The position numbers were made by a program, and so were the translations under genes. From Desulfarculia bacterium (lineage in GTDB: Bacteria > Desulfobacterota > Desulfarculia > Adiutricales > JAGVGV01): a stretch of DNA of 64,000 bases. Shown piece by piece: positions 8,513 through 58,398 of the stretch. The stretch spans positions 1,472,249 to 1,536,248 of the forward strand of contig OY759590.1 of assembly GCA_963662445.1 (NCBI GenBank). Direction: 5' to 3'. The notes under the pieces were generated by a model that saw only the letters and a program-made list of their open reading frames with translations, searched no databases and was not told the DNA's origin. Positions within the stretch are counted from its first letter, which is position 1; the number at the start of each line of letters is the position of its first letter.

Positions 8513-8547
8513 TTATCCCCGGCTGAACAAGCCGCTGTCCGCTCAAA

Positions 8548-8571
8548 AAGCCGCCCCCTCCGGGGCGGCTT
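8548..8571 (+). terminator. GC-rich hairpin downstream of the UPF0210 gene (possible terminator, no clear U-tract)
   Basis: AAGCCGCCCC-ctcc-GGGGCGGCTT, a perfect 10 bp stem, 36 nt after the stop codon. Confidence 0.4.
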
Positions 8572-8578
8572 CCAGACT

Positions 8579-9010
8579 GTTGACAAACCCCTTTGTTGTC
8601 TTTAGCAAGCTGACTGGCACCCCCAAAGCCGATTTTCCGGTTTCCTCTTTCTCCGGCGAACACGGACGTTCACCCCCCGGCGAAGGGCTGATTTGGGGTA
8701 GCGACCAGCGGGAGCGTAGGGGACAACGTCCCCTCGTGGCGTGCAGGCGCAGCCTGCCGTTCGACGGGTTAAAAGAGGCCGGGGGTTCCAAGGGGACGCG
8801 GCCGCTTGGGCGTCCCCTTGGTCTGGCAGGCTTTCGCCTGCACCCGGCTCCGGAGGCTGACGCCTCCGGTTTTATATTCCATCTTTACGCGGGGGCAGCG
8901 ACCAGCGGGAGCGCTGGGGGCGGCCAGCCCCAGAGTGGGTCCAGGCGACAGCCTGGGGCGAAGCATCCCGCCTGAACAGTCATTCTCGGAGTCTTCTTTT
9001 CTTTTGCTTG
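8579..9010. repeat. Mosaic intergenic repeat, locus 1 (chain of hairpin modules, E-D-C-B-A-F')
   Basis: 8579-8822 is about 96% identical by eye to the reverse complement of 27089-27332. 8801-8975 is about 93% identical to the reverse complement of 24538-24722. The element is built from consecutive 6-10 bp GC stems. Confidence 0.8.
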
Positions 9011-24303: not shown

Positions 24304-24454
24304 GATTCATGTCTGTGTACCGGCGCAGGTGAAGATTCTCTGTTTTCCCATATACCAATCGGAGGCGATAACTCCGCCTCGGGTTCTTGCTCAGCCCCGT
24401 TAATTACCACGGCGTTCATGCTTGCCGCTCAATCTGCTCCGAAGTCTATGCTCC

Positions 24455-24745
24455 GGAGGCTTTCGCCTCCGGTGCGTTTGTTGACAAAGTGGCTCCCAAG
24501 GCCGTTGAAAGAAAAGAAGGCTCCGAGAAAAACTATACAGGCGGGGTGCTTCGCCCCAGGCTGTCGCCTGGCCCCTCTCTGGGGGCTGGCCGCCCCCAGC
24601 GCTCCCGTTGGTCGCTGCCCCCGCGTAAAGATGGAATATAAAACTGGAGGCGTCAGCCTCCGGAGCCGGGTGCAGGCGAAAGCCTGCCAGACCAAGGGAA
24701 CGCCTGAGCGGCCGCGTCCCCTTGGTCTGGGCGGGAAAGACTATC
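24455..24745. repeat. Mosaic intergenic repeat, locus 2 (modules F-A-B-C, inverted relative to locus 1)
   Basis: See locus 1. Lies in the convergent gap between the kinase and tag. Confidence 0.8.
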
Positions 24746-26934: not shown

Positions 26935-27435
26935 AAACCCCGCATCTGTTTGCGGGGTTTGAGCTTGTTGACAAAGTCCCATCAAAGGCCCTTGAAAGAG
27001 AAGAAGGCTCCGAGAATGACTGTTCAGGCGGGGTGCTTCGCCCCTGCCGCGAACGGCGGCGACTTCGGACAGTTTTTCCCGCCCAGACCAAGGGGACGCC
27101 CAAGCGGCCGCGTCCCCTTGGAACCCCCGGCCTTTTTAACCCGTCGAACGGCAGGCTGCGCCTGCACGCCACGAGGGGACGTTGTCCCCTACGCTCCCGC
27201 TGGTCGCTACCCCAAATCAGCCCTTCGCCGGGGGGCGAACGTCCGTGTTCGCCGGAGAAAGAGGAAACCGGAAAATCGGCTTTGGGGGTGCAGGTCAGCT
27301 TGATAAAGACAAGAAAGGGGTTTGTCAACAGTCTGAACCCCCGCATCTGTTTGCGGGGGTTGAGTTTGGTGACAAAGCCGCTCCAAAAGCAGTTATGAAG
27401 ATAAGACGGCTCCGAGAATGACCGTTCAGGCGACA
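26935..27435. repeat. Mosaic intergenic repeat, locus 3 (F - C - D - E - F; a core bracketed by about 100 bp direct repeats)
   Basis: 26935-27035 and 27333-27432 are direct repeats. 27089-27332 is the reverse complement of 8579-8822. Confidence 0.8.
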
Positions 27436-27458
27436 GCCTGGCGGAGGCCTCTTTCTTT

Positions 27459-29210: not shown

Positions 29211-29286
29211 GCGCCGCTAGCTCAACTGGCAGAGCAAATGACTCTTAATCATTAGGTTGTAGGTTCGATTCCTACGCGGCGCACCA
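29211..29286 (+). tRNA. tRNA-Lys (anticodon CTT), CCA encoded
   Basis: Cloverleaf folded by hand. Acceptor stem GCGCCGC/GCGGCGC, D stem GCTC/GAGC, anticodon stem AATGA/TCATT with loop CTCTTAA, T arm GTAGG-TTCGATT-CCTAC, then ACCA. Confidence 0.9.
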
Positions 29287-46297: not shown

Positions 46298-46650
46298 GGG
46301 GGGCAGCGACCAGCGGGAGCGCTGAGGGCGGTCAGCCCCCATAGATGGTCCAGGCGACAGCCTGGCAGCAAGGGGGGCAGGCTTTCGCCTGCACCCTGCT
46401 CCGGAGGCTGCCGCCTCCGGTTTAATTCTTTGGTCTTCCGCAGGGGCAGCGACCAGCGGGAGCGCTGGGGGCGGTCAGCCCCCATAGATGGTCCAGGCGA
46501 CAGCCTGGCAGCAAGGGGGGCAGGCTTTCGCCTGCACCCTGCTCCGGAGGCTGCCGCCTCCGGTTTAATTCTTTGGTCTTCCGCAGGGGCAGCGACCAGC
46601 GGGAGCGCTGGGGGCGGCCAGCCCCCAGAGATGGTCCAGGCGACAGCCTG
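46298..46650. repeat. Tandem array (about 2.4 copies, 143 bp period) of repeat modules A+B
   Basis: GGGCAGCGAC recurs at 46301, 46444 and 46587. The units are nearly identical. Confidence 0.9.
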
Positions 46651-46653
46651 GCC

Positions 46654-47130
46654 TTAATCGCGCCTTTGGCGGGCCAGCAAGGCGGCCAGGCTTTTGCGCA
46701 ATTCCTCGTCCTTGACCGCGGCCAAGGCCTCGCGTATACCCGGCCGGTCCGATTCGGAAGGTGCGGGCCGCCCTGTGCGCTGGGCTTCACGAGCCTCGGC
46801 CCATTGGCGGGGGGTGCCCAACTCGCCTACCCGGAAACGGATATCCTTGACCACGGGAGCCCCCACTTCGTGGTTGATCTTGTCCACAAAATCGGCCTTG
46901 AAATAGCTGAAACGGTCTATCCAGACAGAGCCTTCCACCGCCACGGACAAGACCCCGTTATGGATGGATTCCGGCCTGGTTCGGGCCGCGTTGAACTCGC
47001 CGACCGCCTTGGGCCAGGCTTCAAAGACACGGACCATCTCCCGGGCCAGGCCGAGAAATCCGTTGCCCATGGATTCGTCCAGCAGCTCCCCCACGGGCCT
47101 GGGCTCGCTTTTTTCCCGTTTCTTCTCCAT
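46654..47130 (-). CDS. DUF721 / DciA-like protein
   Basis: 158 aa. WPKAVGEFNAARTRPESIHNGVLSVAVEGSVWIDRFSYFKADFVDKIN matches the DUF721 pattern. Confidence 0.7.
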   Translation of the reverse strand: MEKKREKSEPRPVGELLDESMGNGFLGLAREMVRVFEAWPKAVGEFNAARTRPESIHNGVLSVAVEGSVWIDRFSYFKADFVDKINHEVGAPVVKDIRFRVGELGTPRQWAEAREAQRTGRPAPSESDRPGIREALAAVKDEELRKSLAALLARQRRD

Positions 47131-47410
47131 ACCGATACTCTATCTGCACTTACCCGTCCCCGTCAATGGCCCGAATCAACTCCTGCTCATCCGGCCATGG
47201 GGTGTCATGACATCGGGAATCCCGGCCTTCGGAACAATCGCCCTTCCGTTCACTGCCGGTCGTATAACCTGCTGTCGGGATTTTTGCATGGATAGGCCGA
47301 ACGCTTTGATAAAACAGAAAAACAAAATACAGCCACTTGACCTAGGTCAAGGCCTGATCTCCTTGTCCGGGGTATTCTATAATCAAGTTGCGGACAAGGA
47401 GGTTTCACCC

Positions 47411-48211
47411 ATGGCGGTCAGAAACATCATTCAGATAGACGAAGACAAGTGCGACGGATGCGGCCTTTGCGTGATCGGCTGCGCGGAAGGCGCTCTGAAG
47501 GTCATCAACGGCAAGGCGAAACTGGTCAGCGAAATCTATTGCGACGGTTTGGGCGCCTGTCTGGGCGAATGTCCCACAGGGGCCCTGACGGTCATCCGGA
47601 GAGATGCCGAAGAGTTCGACGAGTCGGCGGCCATGGCTCATGTGGCTTCCCGGCAGGACGAGAACAACCGGCAATCCACCCAGGGGCCGGAGCCGGTTCA
47701 GATTCAGCCCGCCCCGGTCCATGCCTCGCATGGTCAGGGGACTCTGGCTTGCGGCTGCCCCGGAAGCATGTCTCGGGAACTCAGTCCGGCCGACTCACGT
47801 CAGACCAGGGAAGCGGCTCCGGCTTCGGCTCTGCGCAACTGGCCGGTCCAGTTGCATCTGGTCCCGGTCAAGGCGCCTTATTTTCAGGACGCGGAACTGC
47901 TCATCTCCGCCGACTGCGCGGGTTTCTCGGCCACGAATCTGCACCGGGAATACCTGCCCGGCAAGACCCTGGTCATCGCCTGCCCCAAGCTGGACGAGAC
48001 GAGTGGCTACGAAGACAAGCTGGCGGAAATTATAAAGAATAACCATATCAAATCCCTGACGGTTCTTTATATGACTGTGCCTTGCTGCTTCGGCCTGGTC
48101 CACCTGGTCAGGCAGGCTGTCAGGAAGAGCGGCCGGGTGGTGCCTCTGCGGCTGGTCCAGATTGAACCGACCGGAGAAGTGGCTGAAGTTCTGGAGGAAG
48201 CGGCCTCATAG
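47411..48211 (+). CDS. 4Fe-4S dicluster domain protein with a Cys-containing C-terminal domain of unknown function
   Basis: CDGCGLCVIGCAEG and CDGLGACLGECPTG. AAGGAGG lies 8 nt upstream of ATG at 47411. The long upstream ORF extension was rejected. Confidence 0.8.
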   Translation: MAVRNIIQIDEDKCDGCGLCVIGCAEGALKVINGKAKLVSEIYCDGLGACLGECPTGALTVIRRDAEEFDESAAMAHVASRQDENNRQSTQGPEPVQIQPAPVHASHGQGTLACGCPGSMSRELSPADSRQTREAAPASALRNWPVQLHLVPVKAPYFQDAELLISADCAGFSATNLHREYLPGKTLVIACPKLDETSGYEDKLAEIIKNNHIKSLTVLYMTVPCCFGLVHLVRQAVRKSGRVVPLRLVQIEPTGEVAEVLEEAAS

Positions 48212-48689: not shown

Positions 48690-48812
48690 TCCCTTGGTTT
48701 GCGGGGGCAGCGACCAGAGGGAGCGCCGGGGGCGGCAAGCCCCCGGAAACAGGTCCAGGCGACAGCCTGGGGGCCGGGGCGACAGCCTGAGGGCCGGGGC
48801 GACAGTCTGGGG
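48690..48812. repeat. Mosaic intergenic repeat, locus 5 (module A variant plus a micro-tandem)
   Basis: GGGGCAGCGACCAGAGGGAGCGCCGGGGGCGGCAAGCCCCC...GGTCCAGGCGACAGCCTGG, followed by two further GGCCGGGGCGACAGyCTG units. Confidence 0.65.
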
Positions 48813-53500: not shown

Positions 53501-55636
53501 ATGGCCCTCAATCTGGACGCCATCGGCAAGAAGATCGGCCCCCTCAGCAAGGACTATGACTGGAAAGACATAGTCCTCTATGCCCTGGGCGTAGGGGCCG
53601 GCTTTGACGAGTTGGACTACGTGTACGAAAACCGCCTCAAGGTGATCCCCAGCTACTCCATCGCCAGTGTCTTCGATTTTCTGGCTGAAGCGGCTCTTTC
53701 GGCCAACGCCAACCTGGCCGGGATTCTCCATGGGGAACAGGACATCATTTTCCACAATCCAATACCTGTCGAAGGCACCCTGACCACCGAGGGCGCGGTT
53801 ACCCACATGTTCGACAAGGGTGAGGGCAAAGGCGCGCTGGTGGTGGCCAAGGCCGACACCTACCATTCCAACGGCCAGAAACTCTTCACCAATATCTTCA
53901 CCCTGTTCAGCCGTCTGGACGGAGGCTTCGGCGGCGAAAAGGGTGACGAGGAGAAGGTGGATTTCCCCGACCGCGCTCCGGATTTCGAGGAACTGGCCAA
54001 TCCTTCGGAGGATCAGCCGCTTCTGTACCGGCTTTCCGGGGACATCTTCACCCTCCATGTCGATCCCGATTTCGCCAAGGCCTCGGGCTTTGAAAAACCC
54101 ATCATGCACGGGCTCTGCACGCACGGGTACACCTGCCGCGCAGTCATCAAACACCTGTTCCCCGGCGAACCGGAGCGCATGTCCCGTTTCCGCGTCCGTT
54201 TCTCCCGGACGCTCTATCCCGGCATCGCCATCAAGACTCAGATCTGGAAGACCGAAGAGGGGCGGGCTGTTTTCCGGGTGGTCAACACGGCCAACAACGA
54301 CGTTGTCATCGACAAGGGCGTGGTGGAATGGCTCAGCAAGGAAGAGTATGAGCGCCGCCAGCGTCTGGGCGGTCTGCGTTTTGAAGACAAGGTTGCTGTG
54401 GTTACCGGTGCCGGGGCCGGTCTCGGCCGGGTGTACGCCTTGGAACTGGCCAAGAGGGGGGCCAAGGTTGTGGTCAACGACCTGGGCGGTTCCCGCGACG
54501 GGGCCGGGGGCTCATCGGCTCCGGCCGACACTGTGGTCAAGGAGATCAAGGCGATGGGCGGCGAGGCTGTGGCCAACTACGATTCCGTGGCCACCGCCGA
54601 GGGCGGTCAGGCCATAATCGACGCGGCTGTGGCCGCTTTCGGCCGGGTGGACATCGTCATCAACAACGCCGGCATCCTCCGGGACAAGACCCTGGTCAAG
54701 ATGGACCCGGAAAACTGGGACACGGTCATGGACGTGCATCTCAAGGGTGCTTACAACGTCACCCGTCCGGCCTATGTCAAGATGCGGGAACAGGGTTACG
54801 GCCGGATAGTCTTTACCACCTCGGCCGCCGGTTTGTACGGCAACTTCGGCCAGACCAACTACTCGGCCGCCAAGATGGGGCTGGTAGGCTTTATGAACAC
54901 ATTGAAGATAGAGGGCGGGAAGAACGACATCAAGGTCAACACCGTGGCTCCGGTGGCGGCCACCCGGCTGACCGAAGACATCCTGCCGCCTGAGATGCTG
55001 GCCAAGCTCAAGCCTGAATTCGTGGCTCCCCTGGTCCTTTATCTCTGTTCGGAGCAGTGCCCTGATTCCGGCCGGATCTACAACGCCGGCATGGGGTACT
55101 TCAACCGTGCGGCGGTTCTGACCGGTCCTGGTGCGGTGGTCGGCGACGGCAAGTCCATACCCACGCCCGAGCAGGTGGCCGAGGCCATGCCCAAGATCAA
55201 AGCCATGGGCGGGGCCAAGGAATACCCCAATCTCAACGCGGCTCTGACGCCCATGCTGGAAGCCTTTTCGCCCAAGAAAGAGGCGCCGGCGGCCGGGGCG
55301 CAGGGGGGCGGAGGCGGCTTGACCGTGCCCGGAATCTTCGCGGCCATGAAGGATGCCTTCCAGGCCGACAAGGCCGCCGGGGTCGAGGTGGTTTTTCAGT
55401 ATGACATCAGCGGCGCGGGCGGCGGTTCCTGGAACGTCCAGATCAAGGACGGGGCCTGCTCCATCGCGGAGGGCAAACACGCCAGCCCCACCACCACCCT
55501 GGGCATGGGTGATGAAGACTTCATCCGGATGATCCGGGGCGAACTGAACGCCATGACGGCTTTCACCAGCGGCAAGCTCAAGATCGGCGGCGATGTCATG
55601 AAGTCTCAACTCATCGAAAAACTCTTCAAGTTCTGA
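53501..55636 (+). CDS. MFE-2-like multifunctional enzyme: double hot-dog (R)-specific enoyl-CoA hydratase 2, then SDR (3R)-hydroxyacyl-CoA dehydrogenase, then an SCP2 domain
   Basis: 711 aa. Hydratase-2-type motif YRLSGDIFTLHVDPDFA. The SDR region (VAVVTGAGAGLGRVYALELAKRGAKVVVNDLGG, NNAGILRD, GNFGQTNYSAAK) resembles the HSD17B4 dehydrogenase domain as I remember it. The C-terminal SCP2-like region is GDEDFIRMIRGELNAMTAFTSGKLKIGGD. Confidence 0.9.
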   Translation: MALNLDAIGKKIGPLSKDYDWKDIVLYALGVGAGFDELDYVYENRLKVIPSYSIASVFDFLAEAALSANANLAGILHGEQDIIFHNPIPVEGTLTTEGAVTHMFDKGEGKGALVVAKADTYHSNGQKLFTNIFTLFSRLDGGFGGEKGDEEKVDFPDRAPDFEELANPSEDQPLLYRLSGDIFTLHVDPDFAKASGFEKPIMHGLCTHGYTCRAVIKHLFPGEPERMSRFRVRFSRTLYPGIAIKTQIWKTEEGRAVFRVVNTANNDVVIDKGVVEWLSKEEYERRQRLGGLRFEDKVAVVTGAGAGLGRVYALELAKRGAKVVVNDLGGSRDGAGGSSAPADTVVKEIKAMGGEAVANYDSVATAEGGQAIIDAAVAAFGRVDIVINNAGILRDKTLVKMDPENWDTVMDVHLKGAYNVTRPAYVKMREQGYGRIVFTTSAAGLYGNFGQTNYSAAKMGLVGFMNTLKIEGGKNDIKVNTVAPVAATRLTEDILPPEMLAKLKPEFVAPLVLYLCSEQCPDSGRIYNAGMGYFNRAAVLTGPGAVVGDGKSIPTPEQVAEAMPKIKAMGGAKEYPNLNAALTPMLEAFSPKKEAPAAGAQGGGGGLTVPGIFAAMKDAFQADKAAGVEVVFQYDISGAGGGSWNVQIKDGACSIAEGKHASPTTTLGMGDEDFIRMIRGELNAMTAFTSGKLKIGGDVMKSQLIEKLFKF

Positions 55637-55656: not shown

Positions 55657-58398
55657 ATGATCGGCATCACAGCATACGGCGGTTACATCCCCCGGCTCAG
55701 GCTTAACCGCATGTCCATCTACCAGGCCATGGGCTGGTTCGCCCCGGCCCTGATCGCGGTGGCCCAGGGGGAGAGGTCATTCTGCAACTGGGATGAAGAC
55801 AGCCTGACCATGGCCGTGGCCGCGGGCAAGGACTGTCTGACCGGACAGGATAAATCCCTGATCGACGGTGTATTTCTAGGTTCGACAACCCTGCCGTTCA
55901 GCGACCGGCTGAACTCGGGGGTTCTCAAAACGACCCTCAACCTGGGCGACGAGATCAAGGCGGCGGACTTCACGTCGTCTCTCCGTGCCGGGACCACGGC
56001 GCTGGTGGAGGCTCTGACGGCGGTCAAGAGCGGGGACAACAACCAGGTCCTGGTTGCGGCCTCGGACAAGCGCCAGGCCAAGATGGGTTATTTCTACGAG
56101 ATGTGGTTCGGCGACGGAGCCGCGTCGGTTCTGGTCGGGCGGGAAAACGTCATCGCCGAACACCTGGGCTCCCATACGGTGACCAGCGACTTCGTGGATC
56201 ACTACCGGGGCCAGAACAACCAGTTCGATTACATGTGGGAAGAGCGCTGGGTCCGCGATGAAGGGTATTCCAAGATAGTTCCGGCCGCCGTCAACGGCCT
56301 GCTGAAGAAGCTTTCCCTGTCCATGGACGACATCAGCCGGTTTGTTTTCCCCTGTTTCTTCAAGGCCGAGCATCTGAAGATAGGCAAGGGCCTTGGGGCC
56401 GGGGGCGGCAAGCTGATGGACAACCTGCACGAGGTCTGCGGCGAGACCGGGGCGGCTCATCCCCTGGTCATGCTGGTCAAGGCGCTGGAGGAAGCCAAGC
56501 CCGGAGACCGGATTCTGGTGGCCGGTTTCGGGCAGGGCTGCGACGCCATGTGCTTTCAGGTCACCGAGGCTATCCTGGACCTGCCGGCCCGCCGGGGCAT
56601 AAACGGTTCCCTGGCCCAGAAGAAGACCACGGACAACTATCAGAAGTTTCTGAAGTTCCGGGACCTGATACAGCCGGAGATGGGCATCAGGGCGGAAGCG
56701 CCGACCCAGACGGCCATGACGGTGCTGTACCGCAAGAGGGACATGCTGTTCGGGCTGGTCGGCGGGAAGTGTTCCAAGTGCGGCACTCCCCAGTTCCCGC
56801 GCATGGATATATGCGTCAACCCGGACTGCCGCGCCGTGCATACTCAGGAGCCTTATGAATTCGCCGGTGTTCCGGCCAAGGTCAAGACCTTTACCGGTGA
56901 CCTGCTGGCCGTTTCGGTCGATCCGCCCGCCATCTACGGCATGGTTCAGTTTGAAGGCGGCGGACGCTTCATGGCCGACTTCACGGATTGCGAACTCGGC
57001 GATGTCCGGGTGGGACAGCCGGTGGAGATGAGCTTCCGGAGGCGTTACCTTGACCGGGAGCGTGGTTTTTCGGGGTATTTCTGGAAAGCCGTTCCGCTGC
57101 CCGTGAAGGAAGCCCCTGCGGCTTCCGAGGAGCGCATCCGTTTTGACGATCAGGTGGCAGTGGTCACCGGGGCCGGGGCTGGTCTTGGGCGGGTATATGC
57201 GCTCGAACTGGCCAAACGGGGAGCCAAAGTCGTCGTCAACGACCTGGGTGGGGCTCGCGACGGCGCCGGAGGCTCCTCGACCCCGGCCGACACTGTGGTC
57301 AAGGAGATCAAGGAGCTGGGCGGCGAGGCCGTGGCCAACTACGATTCCGTGGCTACGCAGGAAGGCGGACAGTCCCTTATCGACGCAGCCGTGGCCGCTT
57401 TCGGCCGGGTGGACATCGTGGTCAACAACGCCGGCATCCTCCGGGACAAGACCCTGGTGAAGATGGACCCGGAAAACTGGGACGCGGTCATGGCGGTTCA
57501 TCTTAAGGGCGCTTACAACGTCACCCGCCCGGCCTTTATAAAGATGCGCGAACAGGGTTACGGCCGCATAATTTTCACCACTTCCGCCGCCGGACTGTAC
57601 GGCAATTTCGGCCAGACCAACTATTCGGCCGCCAAGATGGCCCTGGTGGGCTTCATGAACACCCTCAAAGCCGAAGGCGAGAAGCACAACATCCGGGTCA
57701 ACACAGTGGCCCCCATCGCCGCTACCCGGTTGACTGAAGACGTGATGCCGCCGGATCTGTTCGCCAAGCTCAAGCCGGAATTCGTGGCTCCGCTGGTGCT
57801 TTATCTGGCTTCTAACGAATGCTCCGAAACCGGCCAGATATTCAACGCGGGCATGGGGTACTTCAACCGGGCGGCCATAGTCACCGGTCCGGGCGCGGTA
57901 GTCGGCGACGGCAAGACTCCCCCGGCCCCGGAAGAGCTGCACAAGAATTGGGAGGCGGTCAATTCGCTGGAGGGCGGTCAGGAATACCCCAACGCCACCG
58001 CGGCTTTCAGCCCCATGCTGGATGCTTTTTCGCCCAAGAAGGCTGAAGCGGCGGAAGGCGGGGCCGGTTCCGGCGGCGGACAGGCCGTGGCCGGTATTTT
58101 CGAGGGCATGCCGGGAGCTTTCCAGGCGGACAAAGCCGCAGGGGTGGACGTGGTCTTCCAGTTCTCCATCACCGGGCCCGAAGGCGGCGACTGGTTCGCC
58201 GTGGTCAAGGACGGCAAGCTGGAAGTGGGCCAGGGCCGGCACGGTTCGCCGACCACCACCATAAAGATGGCCGATCAGGACTTCGTCAAGCTCATCACCG
58301 GCGAACTGAACGCCATGGCCGCCTTCACGGGGGGCAAGCTCCGTATAGATGGCGACCTGATGAAGTCCCAGCTCATAGAGAAGCTTTTCAAGTTCTGA
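55657..58398 (+). CDS. Four-domain fusion: HMG-CoA-synthase-like thiolase-fold domain, DUF35 (zinc ribbon plus OB fold), SDR dehydrogenase, SCP2
   Basis: 913 aa. N-terminus MIGITAYGGYIPRLRL (HMGCS/COG3425-like). CSKCGTPQFPRMDICVNPDC followed by an OB-fold region (DUF35). The SDR and SCP2 part is about 80-85% identical to the upstream gene. Confidence 0.85.
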   Translation: MIGITAYGGYIPRLRLNRMSIYQAMGWFAPALIAVAQGERSFCNWDEDSLTMAVAAGKDCLTGQDKSLIDGVFLGSTTLPFSDRLNSGVLKTTLNLGDEIKAADFTSSLRAGTTALVEALTAVKSGDNNQVLVAASDKRQAKMGYFYEMWFGDGAASVLVGRENVIAEHLGSHTVTSDFVDHYRGQNNQFDYMWEERWVRDEGYSKIVPAAVNGLLKKLSLSMDDISRFVFPCFFKAEHLKIGKGLGAGGGKLMDNLHEVCGETGAAHPLVMLVKALEEAKPGDRILVAGFGQGCDAMCFQVTEAILDLPARRGINGSLAQKKTTDNYQKFLKFRDLIQPEMGIRAEAPTQTAMTVLYRKRDMLFGLVGGKCSKCGTPQFPRMDICVNPDCRAVHTQEPYEFAGVPAKVKTFTGDLLAVSVDPPAIYGMVQFEGGGRFMADFTDCELGDVRVGQPVEMSFRRRYLDRERGFSGYFWKAVPLPVKEAPAASEERIRFDDQVAVVTGAGAGLGRVYALELAKRGAKVVVNDLGGARDGAGGSSTPADTVVKEIKELGGEAVANYDSVATQEGGQSLIDAAVAAFGRVDIVVNNAGILRDKTLVKMDPENWDAVMAVHLKGAYNVTRPAFIKMREQGYGRIIFTTSAAGLYGNFGQTNYSAAKMALVGFMNTLKAEGEKHNIRVNTVAPIAATRLTEDVMPPDLFAKLKPEFVAPLVLYLASNECSETGQIFNAGMGYFNRAAIVTGPGAVVGDGKTPPAPEELHKNWEAVNSLEGGQEYPNATAAFSPMLDAFSPKKAEAAEGGAGSGGGQAVAGIFEGMPGAFQADKAAGVDVVFQFSITGPEGGDWFAVVKDGKLEVGQGRHGSPTTTIKMADQDFVKLITGELNAMAAFTGGKLRIDGDLMKSQLIEKLFKF

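Follow-up and report, generated by a model that had tools for sequence, protein, structure and literature searches.

The window analysed here, a 64,000-nucleotide stretch covering positions 1472249-1536248 of contig OY759590.1 from a Desulfarculia bacterium (assembly GCA_963662445.1), contains five related repeat loci, designated by the positions 8579, 24455, 26935, 46298 and 48690. This text concerns the small element bounded by modules F and D that occupies three of them, its relationship to host transcription terminators, and the shorter hairpin units, A and B-A, that accompany it. According to Pfam, the genes flanking the five loci encode DUF711 and LolA-like proteins (8579), a PocR-PAS kinase and an adenine glycosylase (24455), a DUF169 protein and a product with no assignment (26935), a methyltransferase and DciA (46298), and a Fer4 protein and a PAS kinase (48690). 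The initial annotation, made from the letters alone, had placed five related repeats at these positions, all outside genes, with the loci at 8579 and 26935 between tandem genes and the other three between convergent ones; the repeats, their intergenic location and their contexts were all recovered here. Positions 8573-8794 are complementary to 27114-27335 (94% over 222 nt), 8788-8931 to 24582-24725 (97% over 144 nt) and 8928-9004 to 24508-24584 (90%). At 46300-46728, a 143-bp unit is repeated in tandem about 2.5 times, and module A occurs in the window at 8885, 46293, 46436, 46579 and 48697.

The host genome is a single contig of 4,829,436 bp with 57.7% G+C, and is 100% complete; the similarity of its proteins marks it as that of a Desulfobacterota-type bacterium. 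BLAST of the five window loci against it yielded 137 merged loci totalling 34,098 bp, about 0.7% of the 4.83-Mb genome. The module-by-module comparison with the full genome that had been proposed as a check revealed a genome-wide family of about 130 loci, in which each module has 50–85 BLAST copies with sharp edges in the depth profiles. The modules matched no known insertion sequence (IS), MITE (miniature inverted-repeat transposable element) or non-coding RNA family.

To describe the architecture of the element, seven modules were mapped on the genome and read on either strand. A single order, F-(G, a-b or a diverged filler)-C-(H)-D, fits 132 loci, and both termini are present, and conserved, in 45 copies, hereafter referred to as full copies. 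Whereas the modules had initially been described as occurring in free order and orientation, their order is largely fixed; whole elements flip, single modules do not. Two main size classes, of about 315 bp and 407 bp, correspond to length clusters of 310–320 bp (22 copies, FGCD) and 400–410 bp (15 copies, FabCD); seven copies of 360–440 bp make up most of the remainder, and those mapped by module contain a 66-nt insert, H. The element is bounded by imperfect inverted ends, GAGCTTGTTGACAAAG...TTTGTCAACAGTCTG. The two 16-bp ends, 5'-GAGCTTGTTGACAAAG and 5'-CAGACTGTTGACAAAC, match at 12 of 16 positions and have a perfect core of 11 bp in common, and extra subterminal complementarity allows the whole element to fold as a panhandle. 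In one subfamily the 38-nt G segment is exactly replaced by the a-b block, whose orientation relative to F and D is constant; consequently, FabCD is a subfamily that spread as a unit and did not arise by separate reshuffling at individual loci. Pairwise identity averages 91% among FGCD copies (range 88–96%) and 94% among FabCD copies. No reading frame is conserved, and the hypothesis that the element is coding was ruled out, since the open frames differ from copy to copy.

The flanks of the full copies carry a distinctive footprint. A strict test, requiring a repeat within 4 nt of both termini and no more than about one mismatch per 9 nt, identified flanking duplications in 25 of the 45 full copies, with lengths of 18–30 bp (mean 23.0 bp) and a different sequence at each locus; one additional case passing the same test extends over 40 bp. 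A control that paired the left flank of one copy with the right flank of another gave repeats of at most 11 bp. Around six further copies show recognisable, more diverged hairpin pairs by eye. Reconstruction of the pre-insertion sites revealed an A-tract, a G+C stem-loop and a T-tract, the form of a Rho-independent terminator (for example caaaaatacGGCGGGGCGCCAAGCCCCGCCGtatttttg). In 15 of the 25 cases the best dyad falls exactly on the midpoint of the duplication, and in 21 it is no more than half a base away; the duplication mostly equals the whole palindrome, with the stem extending past it in a few long palindromes. Two clear duplications that are not hairpins measure 11 and 12 bp. The terminator-like hairpin that the initial annotation had counted as part of module F is thus locus-specific host DNA, the duplicated target, which explains its BLAST depth of only 2–8 as against 36–76 for F. 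These findings make it probable that the element inserted at terminator stem-loops and that each insertion came to be flanked by a copy of the whole hairpin.

Further evidence comes from two insertions into a repeated sequence. The b hairpin of a B-A unit is interrupted by an FGCD element at two places in the genome, 3282409 and 4425533. In about 50 uninterrupted B-A copies the sequence reads ...ACCCGGC-TCCGGAGGCTGACGCCTCCGGT-TTTATATT..., with a single hairpin, whereas in the interrupted copies the 22-mer TCCGGAGGCTGACGCCTCCGGT stands on either side of the FGCD insert. The comparison provides an internal equivalent of an empty site, within one genome only. Exchange of flanks between copies, considered as the reason for lost duplications, received no support, as no cross-matching flanks were found. 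The two halves of the duplications differ by 4.5% (26 of 576 positions) and no pair of copies is more than 96% identical, pointing to an old burst whose driver has been lost. The recent mobility that had been read from the high identity of the copies is not indicated by this divergence, which amounts to 4–12% between copies.

In structure, the element is a MITE-like non-autonomous element. It is small, non-coding and multicopy (315 or 407 bp; 75 cores detected by a covariance model), it has terminal inverted repeats in 45 copies, and it has locus-specific flanking duplications, though these are atypical in length and palindromy. The structural definition of a MITE is departed from only in the parent IS: no cognate autonomous IS with the same ends was found in the genome, its relatives or public collections.

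The genomic context of the full copies was analysed with gene calls from a rough in-house gene caller. None of the 45 overlaps a predicted gene. Convergent gaps hold 31% of the full copies but constitute 15% of all intergenic gaps, whereas divergent gaps hold 9% and constitute 20%; in tandem contexts, the element usually starts 35–70 bp past the upstream stop codon. This enrichment at gene 3' ends fits the targeting of terminators. Orientation shows no preference relative to the upstream gene (15 versus 12). Nor is it biased relative to the direction of replication (25 versus 20 among the full copies); insertion into one specific single strand at the fork, from which a replication-linked strand bias would be expected, is therefore not supported and was set aside.

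Within the element, variation is unevenly distributed. Module C and the proximal part of D form a 115-nt core of three hairpins with a AACCCCCGGCC-T6-AA linker. Variants shared among copies are close to 0 in the core as against 0.03–0.10 per site in the periphery, and private substitutions amount to 0.002–0.016 per site in the core and 0.02–0.034 in the ends. In two divergent copies, the sequence differs but the hairpins are preserved. The covariance model of the core, another of the checks initially proposed, detected the 75 copies in the host genome and full-length matches in one other genome, which belongs to a different genus of the same family; an improved model was positive in 2 of 95 genomes of the class, representing 2 of its 35 genera. 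The sister genus carries the core within a repeat of about 540–585 bp, of which at least 40 copies are 86–94% identical; its left-end motif occurs 171 times, and many copies lie at contig ends. Example loci (G001 L114:1742-2284 and L115-L132) are intergenic mosaics, and the repeat is surrounded there by other repeat modules, such as the palindrome GCTGGTTCCCAAGCT-NN-AGCTTGGGAACCAGC.

Joint alignment of the cores of the two genera, which comprises about three independent lineages and was fitted to the structure model, places paired bases in 95.9% of cells, compared with 40–49% when the partners are slid by 1–3 columns. Nineteen of 32 pairs changed on both sides (6 of 12 in helix 1 and 6 of 7 in helix 3), none of 500 shuffles reached the observed values, and the linker and an RTCCAT loop are constant. 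The pattern of substitution suggests that the core is probably a cis-acting structured module.

Such conservation raises the alternative that the core is a functional structured RNA, either a small RNA or a module of the 3' untranslated region (3' UTR), for which the mobile ends are a mere vehicle; copies would then be retained for their effect on the stability, processing or termination of the upstream transcript. Relative to the ends, the core shows about 10-fold lower variability and about 3-fold fewer private substitutions; its conservation extends across two genera with the 19 pairs changed on both sides, its loop and linker motifs (RTCCAT and AACCCCCGGC-T6) are kept, and its folding z-score is −6.0. 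Moreover, the upstream hairpin copy would lose most of its T-tract to the insertion while the downstream copy would keep its own, so that read-through is plausible and would place the element in the 3' UTR of the upstream gene. Against this, the absence of a preferred orientation with respect to the upstream gene argues mildly, and the covariation rests on an alignment of about three lineages fitted to a model. An internal sigma-70 promoter was rejected as a candidate, because no promoter of this type passed the scan; the element has a conserved TTGACA-N17-TATCAA, which lacks the final T. Nothing in the loci reaches the gathering score of any family in Rfam 15, the matches within them all being sub-threshold. 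The palindromes of the core can, in addition, be maintained at the DNA level. Taken together, we consider an RNA function as the reason for the family's persistence unlikely, if the best placed of the alternatives.

A second alternative is that the elements were co-opted for a host function exerted by DNA itself, as bidirectional terminators or insulators, or as binding sites for nucleoid proteins or gyrase of the kind proposed for bacterial interspersed mosaic elements (BIMEs). The copies are all located at gene 3' ends, with an excess between convergent genes, their independence of orientation suits a role played by DNA or palindromes, terminator-like hairpins and T-runs are present within modules b and D, and the core has an invariant T6-AA tract between hairpins. 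However, target choice at insertion explains the 3'-end location equally well, and any such function must be dispensable, since 93 of the class's 95 genomes lack the family. We regard this explanation as somewhat less likely still than a role of the core as RNA.

The shorter units behave differently from the F...D element. Unit A, of 67 bp, forms three short hairpins, and the B-A unit, of 133–143 bp, occurs solo, in tandem or inside FabCD; the arrays include A-B-A-B-A at 46298-46652 in the window and (B-A)3 at genome position 3877794. Target duplications are absent from both units. B-A is bounded by two palindromes that resemble, and can pair with, each other, GCAGGC-TTTC-GCCTGC and CCAGGC-GACA-GCCTGG; module b includes a terminator-like hairpin followed by a T-run, and H is an A-like paralogue located in one of the core hairpins. 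When folded as single-stranded DNA, B-A scores z = −4.5 and A z = −2.5. The resemblance of the loci to repetitive extragenic palindromic (REP) sequences and BIMEs, on which the initial annotation had remarked, is owed to these units; it is borne out by their solo, tandem and nested occurrence without duplication, and it does not extend to the main element, which is MITE-like. A true REP/BIME-type system, in which short extragenic palindromes and mosaics of them are dispersed through the action of a REP-associated tyrosine transposase (RAYT) on single-stranded hairpins, would account for hairpin-rich, intergenic units of this kind, for their lack of target duplications, for the much better folding of B-A than of shuffled sequence, and for compensatory change that keeps hairpins, as in elements recognised as folded DNA. 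Nevertheless, the search for a RAYT gene that had been suggested found none: the PF01797 (Y1_Tnp) profile matches in six control genomes and has no match in this complete genome. The main element, with its inverted ends and long target duplications, is also unlike REP sequences and REPINs. Even the units that most resemble REP sequences measure 67–143 bp with three to five hairpins, rather than 20–40 bp. A RAYT-driven origin of the family is consequently very unlikely. Finally, local segmental duplication or gene conversion confined to the region, favoured only by a density of loci in the window somewhat above the genome average (five versus a mean of about 1.7 per 64 kb), is refuted as the source of the five-locus similarity, because the modules are not restricted to this region but spread evenly over the whole 4.83-Mb chromosome (three to seven full copies per 0.5 Mb) and each copy has a separate flanking duplication.

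The autonomous partner expected of a MITE was sought in several ways. Genome searches for pairs of ends 0.6–8 kb apart, both exact and with 1–3 mismatches, yielded none, and none of the long genomic repeats has matching ends when the ends of all of them are compared. Three DDE_Tnp_1 genes, one an intact IS4-like gene and one with two in-frame stop codons, were rejected as the source because their inverted repeats are unrelated to the element ends. The rve integrase-core model PF00665, which we take as a proxy for transposases of the IS3, IS481 and IS1202 types, has no match in the genome, which argues against a resident enzyme of these types. The only obvious multi-copy IS is a 1376-bp element with copies at 929117-930492 and 2189706-2191081; its inverted ends share AAATATTTTTCGC, the copy at 929117 has an 8-bp duplication (CGGCGGTC), and its ends differ from those of the F...D element. 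It is unrelated to the repeat family, and insertion sequences are very few in this genome. Cas1 was likewise dismissed as a mobiliser, as the three Cas1 genes adjoin what appear to be ordinary CRISPR arrays and nothing links them to the elements. Regions of repeated k-mers at 2555056-2562098, 2686138-2687293 and 3843570-3847326 lie near the Cas1 genes at 2553569, 2687877 and 3854761; the block at 2686138, the sole one inspected, has ends that read like a CRISPR repeat (GTGAGTTGACAGGAATCGCGGCTCAAGTACACT), and the genome probably carries three CRISPR-Cas loci. Beyond this genome, neither the element nor the B-A unit was found by BLAST in 40 relatives, which also lacked an autonomous partner. The C module is absent from genome and metagenome collections, the inverted-end 20-mer has only three chance hits in the collections, plasmid and phage collections gave no match, and the literature contains no description that we could find of these sequences or of hairpin-sized duplications. 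The family is thus an orphan, restricted to its lineage and left by an old burst without a partner transposase.

Several observations count against insertion at, and duplication of, terminator hairpins. No mobilising enzyme emerged from the genome, its relatives or public collections, and about 13 of the 45 full copies have no recognisable duplication. A variable, hairpin-sized duplication is unlike the fixed stagger of a classical DDE transposase. The evidence for mobility is indirect, the equivalents of empty sites being internal to one genome. The repeat of the sister genus does not replicate the footprint: its right end is different, its left end has no more than a short xAG-TTGT motif in common with those described here, and its flanks are themselves repeats. 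Lastly, a purely selfish MITE would not typically be conserved more strongly in its interior than at its ends.

As a mechanism, the footprint would be produced by a pair of strand transfers lying symmetrically on the two sides of the palindrome, followed by gap repair that duplicates the hairpin, as this is the only simple route to a direct duplication of a whole hairpin. What the enzyme recognises would be a hairpin or cruciform in extruded form or, alternatively, a symmetric duplex to which it binds as a dimer. The spacing of 18–30 bp with hairpins and of 11–12 bp without them suggests capture of an extruded structure or a flexible dimer that reads the arms. Symmetric joining would make the duplication equal to the hairpin, with no fixed stagger, and the covarying core of the two genera would be a cis-acting folded DNA or RNA that recruits or guides the enzyme. 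We put forward, tentatively and as a possibility that is itself more doubtful than the insertion footprint, a transposon that chooses its targets by terminator palindromes, probably as extruded hairpins or cruciforms, and whose core recruits an enzyme outside the Y1, rve and IS4/IS5-like classes. To our knowledge, target choice that recognises palindromes and duplicates hairpins has not been described before.

The individual features of the five window loci are listed in the following table.

Table 1. Coordinates of the repeat features in the window.
Feature	Position	Strand	Basis or remark
Terminator stem-loop of upstream DUF711 gene, AAAAAGCCGCCCC-CTCC-GGGGCGGCTT	8545..8571	+	sequence, BLAST depth 1–2
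Element copy 1, 432 bp, D-H-C-b-a-F(32-81)	8573..9004	-	module map, repeat pairs
Copy 1, D	8573-8689		inverted end CAGACTGTTGACAAAC at 8573-8588
Copy 1, H	8690-8755		rare A-like insert
Copy 1, C	8756-8825		
Copy 1, b-a	8825-8956		
Copy 1, F	8955-9004		F-end terminus lost
Target-site hairpin CTCCGGAGGCTTTCGCCTCCGG at F end of copy 2	24451..24472	+	BLAST depth 5 versus at least 35 for F
Element copy 2, F-a-b-C then inverted G, without D	24474..24745	+	module map, repeat pairs
Left target-site duplication AAACCCCGCATCTGTTTGCGGGGTTT, terminator hairpin of upstream DUF169 gene	26935..26960	+	
Full-length element copy 3, 375 bp, F-G-C-H-D	26961..27335	+	
Copy 3, inverted ends	26961-26976; 27320-27335		GAGCTTGTTGACAAAG; GTTTGTCAACAGTCTG
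Copy 3, three-hairpin core	begins 27084		split by H at 27153-27218
Right target-site duplication AACCCCCGCATCTGTTTGCGGGGGTT	27336..27361	+	24 of 26 positions match left copy
Older degenerate F-end fragment (GAGTTTGGTGACAAAG...) joined to A-unit tail (GGCGACAGCCTGG)	27362..27441	+	BLAST depth 2–3
Tandem array A-B-A-B-A, REP/BIME-like unit, 143-bp period	46298..46652	+	between convergent methyltransferase and DciA genes
Solo A unit	48703-48770	+	whole feature 48703..48812

The hairpin that adjoins the D end of copy 1 is a target-site hairpin present once, since the other end of this copy is truncated. Copy 2 is rearranged at the C palindrome, by a palindrome-mediated inversion at 24688-24745. 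The degenerate fragment beside copy 3 shows that a later copy targeted a hairpin next to a copy already in place. After the solo A unit, the last feature continues with two more 20-nt copies of A's last hairpin and ends at the stop codon of the minus-strand PAS histidine-kinase gene. Apparent additional modules to the left of the loci at 24455, 46298 and 48690 proved to be unique sequence. The mosaic appearance of the loci can be traced to two interleaved non-coding repeat families, with contributions from subfamilies that differ in their internal modules, from the truncation of many copies, from the inversion in copy 2, and from the re-use as targets of hairpins in or beside resident copies, as at 27336-27441.

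Other features of the window were noted in passing. Two adjacent large genes at 53501-55636 and 55657-58398 are paralogous, with 72–84% identity over the segments compared (54377-54676 with 57139-57438, and 55470-55636 with 58232-58398) and a 2762-bp period, and represent a tandem gene duplication. A tRNA gene at 29211-29283 is the only feature of the window to reach the Rfam gathering score. The DciA gene (46654-47130, minus strand) and the long open reading frame of the Fer4 gene (46964-48211, plus strand) overlap by about 170 bp, and the Fer4 gene probably starts further downstream than this frame.

Provided that the footprint mirrors the chemistry of insertion, the element represents a transposon that finds safe havens in terminator hairpins and makes copies of them; it would extend the range of target-site duplications, normally short and fixed, and point to structure-specific target capture. 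Each insertion turns the 3' end of a gene into a hairpin, 0.3–0.4 kb of structured DNA and a second hairpin, and 3' ends rebuilt in this way could, at dozens of genes, alter how transcription terminates or reads through and how stable the mRNA is. As regards annotation, some 130 odd intergenic loci are explained, the hairpins flanking the elements are to be read as host terminator DNA, and the assembly breaks of the sister genus at such repeats are accounted for.

Among known systems, the closest in form are the MITEs, such as Correia/CREE, RUP, ERIC, Chunjie, Nezha and MITEAba12. They share with the element described here a small, non-coding body (0.3–0.4 kb in this case), terminal inverted repeats, flanking target duplications, folding into a long panhandle, tens of intergenic copies, subfamilies and truncated copies. 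Known MITE duplications are short and of fixed length, 2–9 bp (PMC10969869). Here, in contrast, the duplication is variable, measures 18–30 bp and comprises a whole terminator stem-loop centred on its dyad; in addition, a known parent IS is lacking and the interior is conserved beyond the ends. The BOX elements of Streptococcus pneumoniae resemble the family in that a variable middle part lies between end modules of fixed order, boxA-boxB(n)-boxC corresponding to F-(G|ab)-C-(H)-D. BOX elements, BIMEs, NIMEs and RIMEs cluster and insert into each other (PMC10969869, PMC3049150), and the REP-like units described here similarly form tandem mosaics as BIMEs, NIMEs and RIMEs do. The resemblance is nevertheless one of layout, with no sequence relationship, and BIMEs need a REP/RAYT system, which this genome lacks. 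We know of no report of terminator-hairpin duplication for any of these four groups. Abundant intergenic multicopy sequences are also present in Geobacter genomes (PMC2700814), unlike the present family in having no sequence relation to it.

Very long duplications are known from the IS1202 family, in two subgroups of which they measure 27–28 bp and 16–17 bp; its inverted repeats begin with TGT and its transposases are distantly related to those of IS481 and IS3 (10.1101/2022.12.17.520857). The core of the element end here, TGTTGACAAA, invites comparison with this TGT start. The conserved termini of the present element, however, reach 5 nt outside the TGT. The IS1202 duplications have a fixed length in each subgroup and are not described as palindromes, whereas here the length follows the hairpin. 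Membership of that family would entail a fixed duplication of 5–6, 16–17 or 27–28 bp and an IS481/IS3-like transposase; the duplications found vary from 18 to 30 bp, and the genome has no PF00665 match.

Terminators or palindromes serve as targets in two further systems. IS231A, of the IS4 family, prefers a symmetric GGG-N5-CCC site with bent A/T-rich flanks and duplicates 11 bp, its duplication being fixed at 10–12 bp, a range to which the 11–12-bp non-hairpin duplications observed here correspond. Group II introns of class C, which are ribozymes no shorter than 0.6 kb, home to the stem-loops of intrinsic terminators as safe havens, with no duplication. Unlike the element described here, neither leaves a whole hairpin on each side. 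A class C intron was also rejected as the identity of the elements, which are 0.3–0.4 kb long and flanked by duplications; no group II intron family reaches its Rfam gathering score anywhere in the window, and a more permissive scan of two of the loci gave none among its sub-threshold matches either. A two-sided attack that duplicates a palindromic target is known from Cas1-Cas2, which attacks twice beside a partly palindromic CRISPR repeat of 24–37 bp and thereby duplicates it, and the related comparison is with casposons, which have inverted ends and 14–15-bp duplications. These systems differ in being sequence-specific for one site. As to the choice of location, a survey of IS families has found terminator-like sequences over-represented beside several of them, duplication not being described there (PMC13548323), and its results are consistent with terminator-proximal niches being common.

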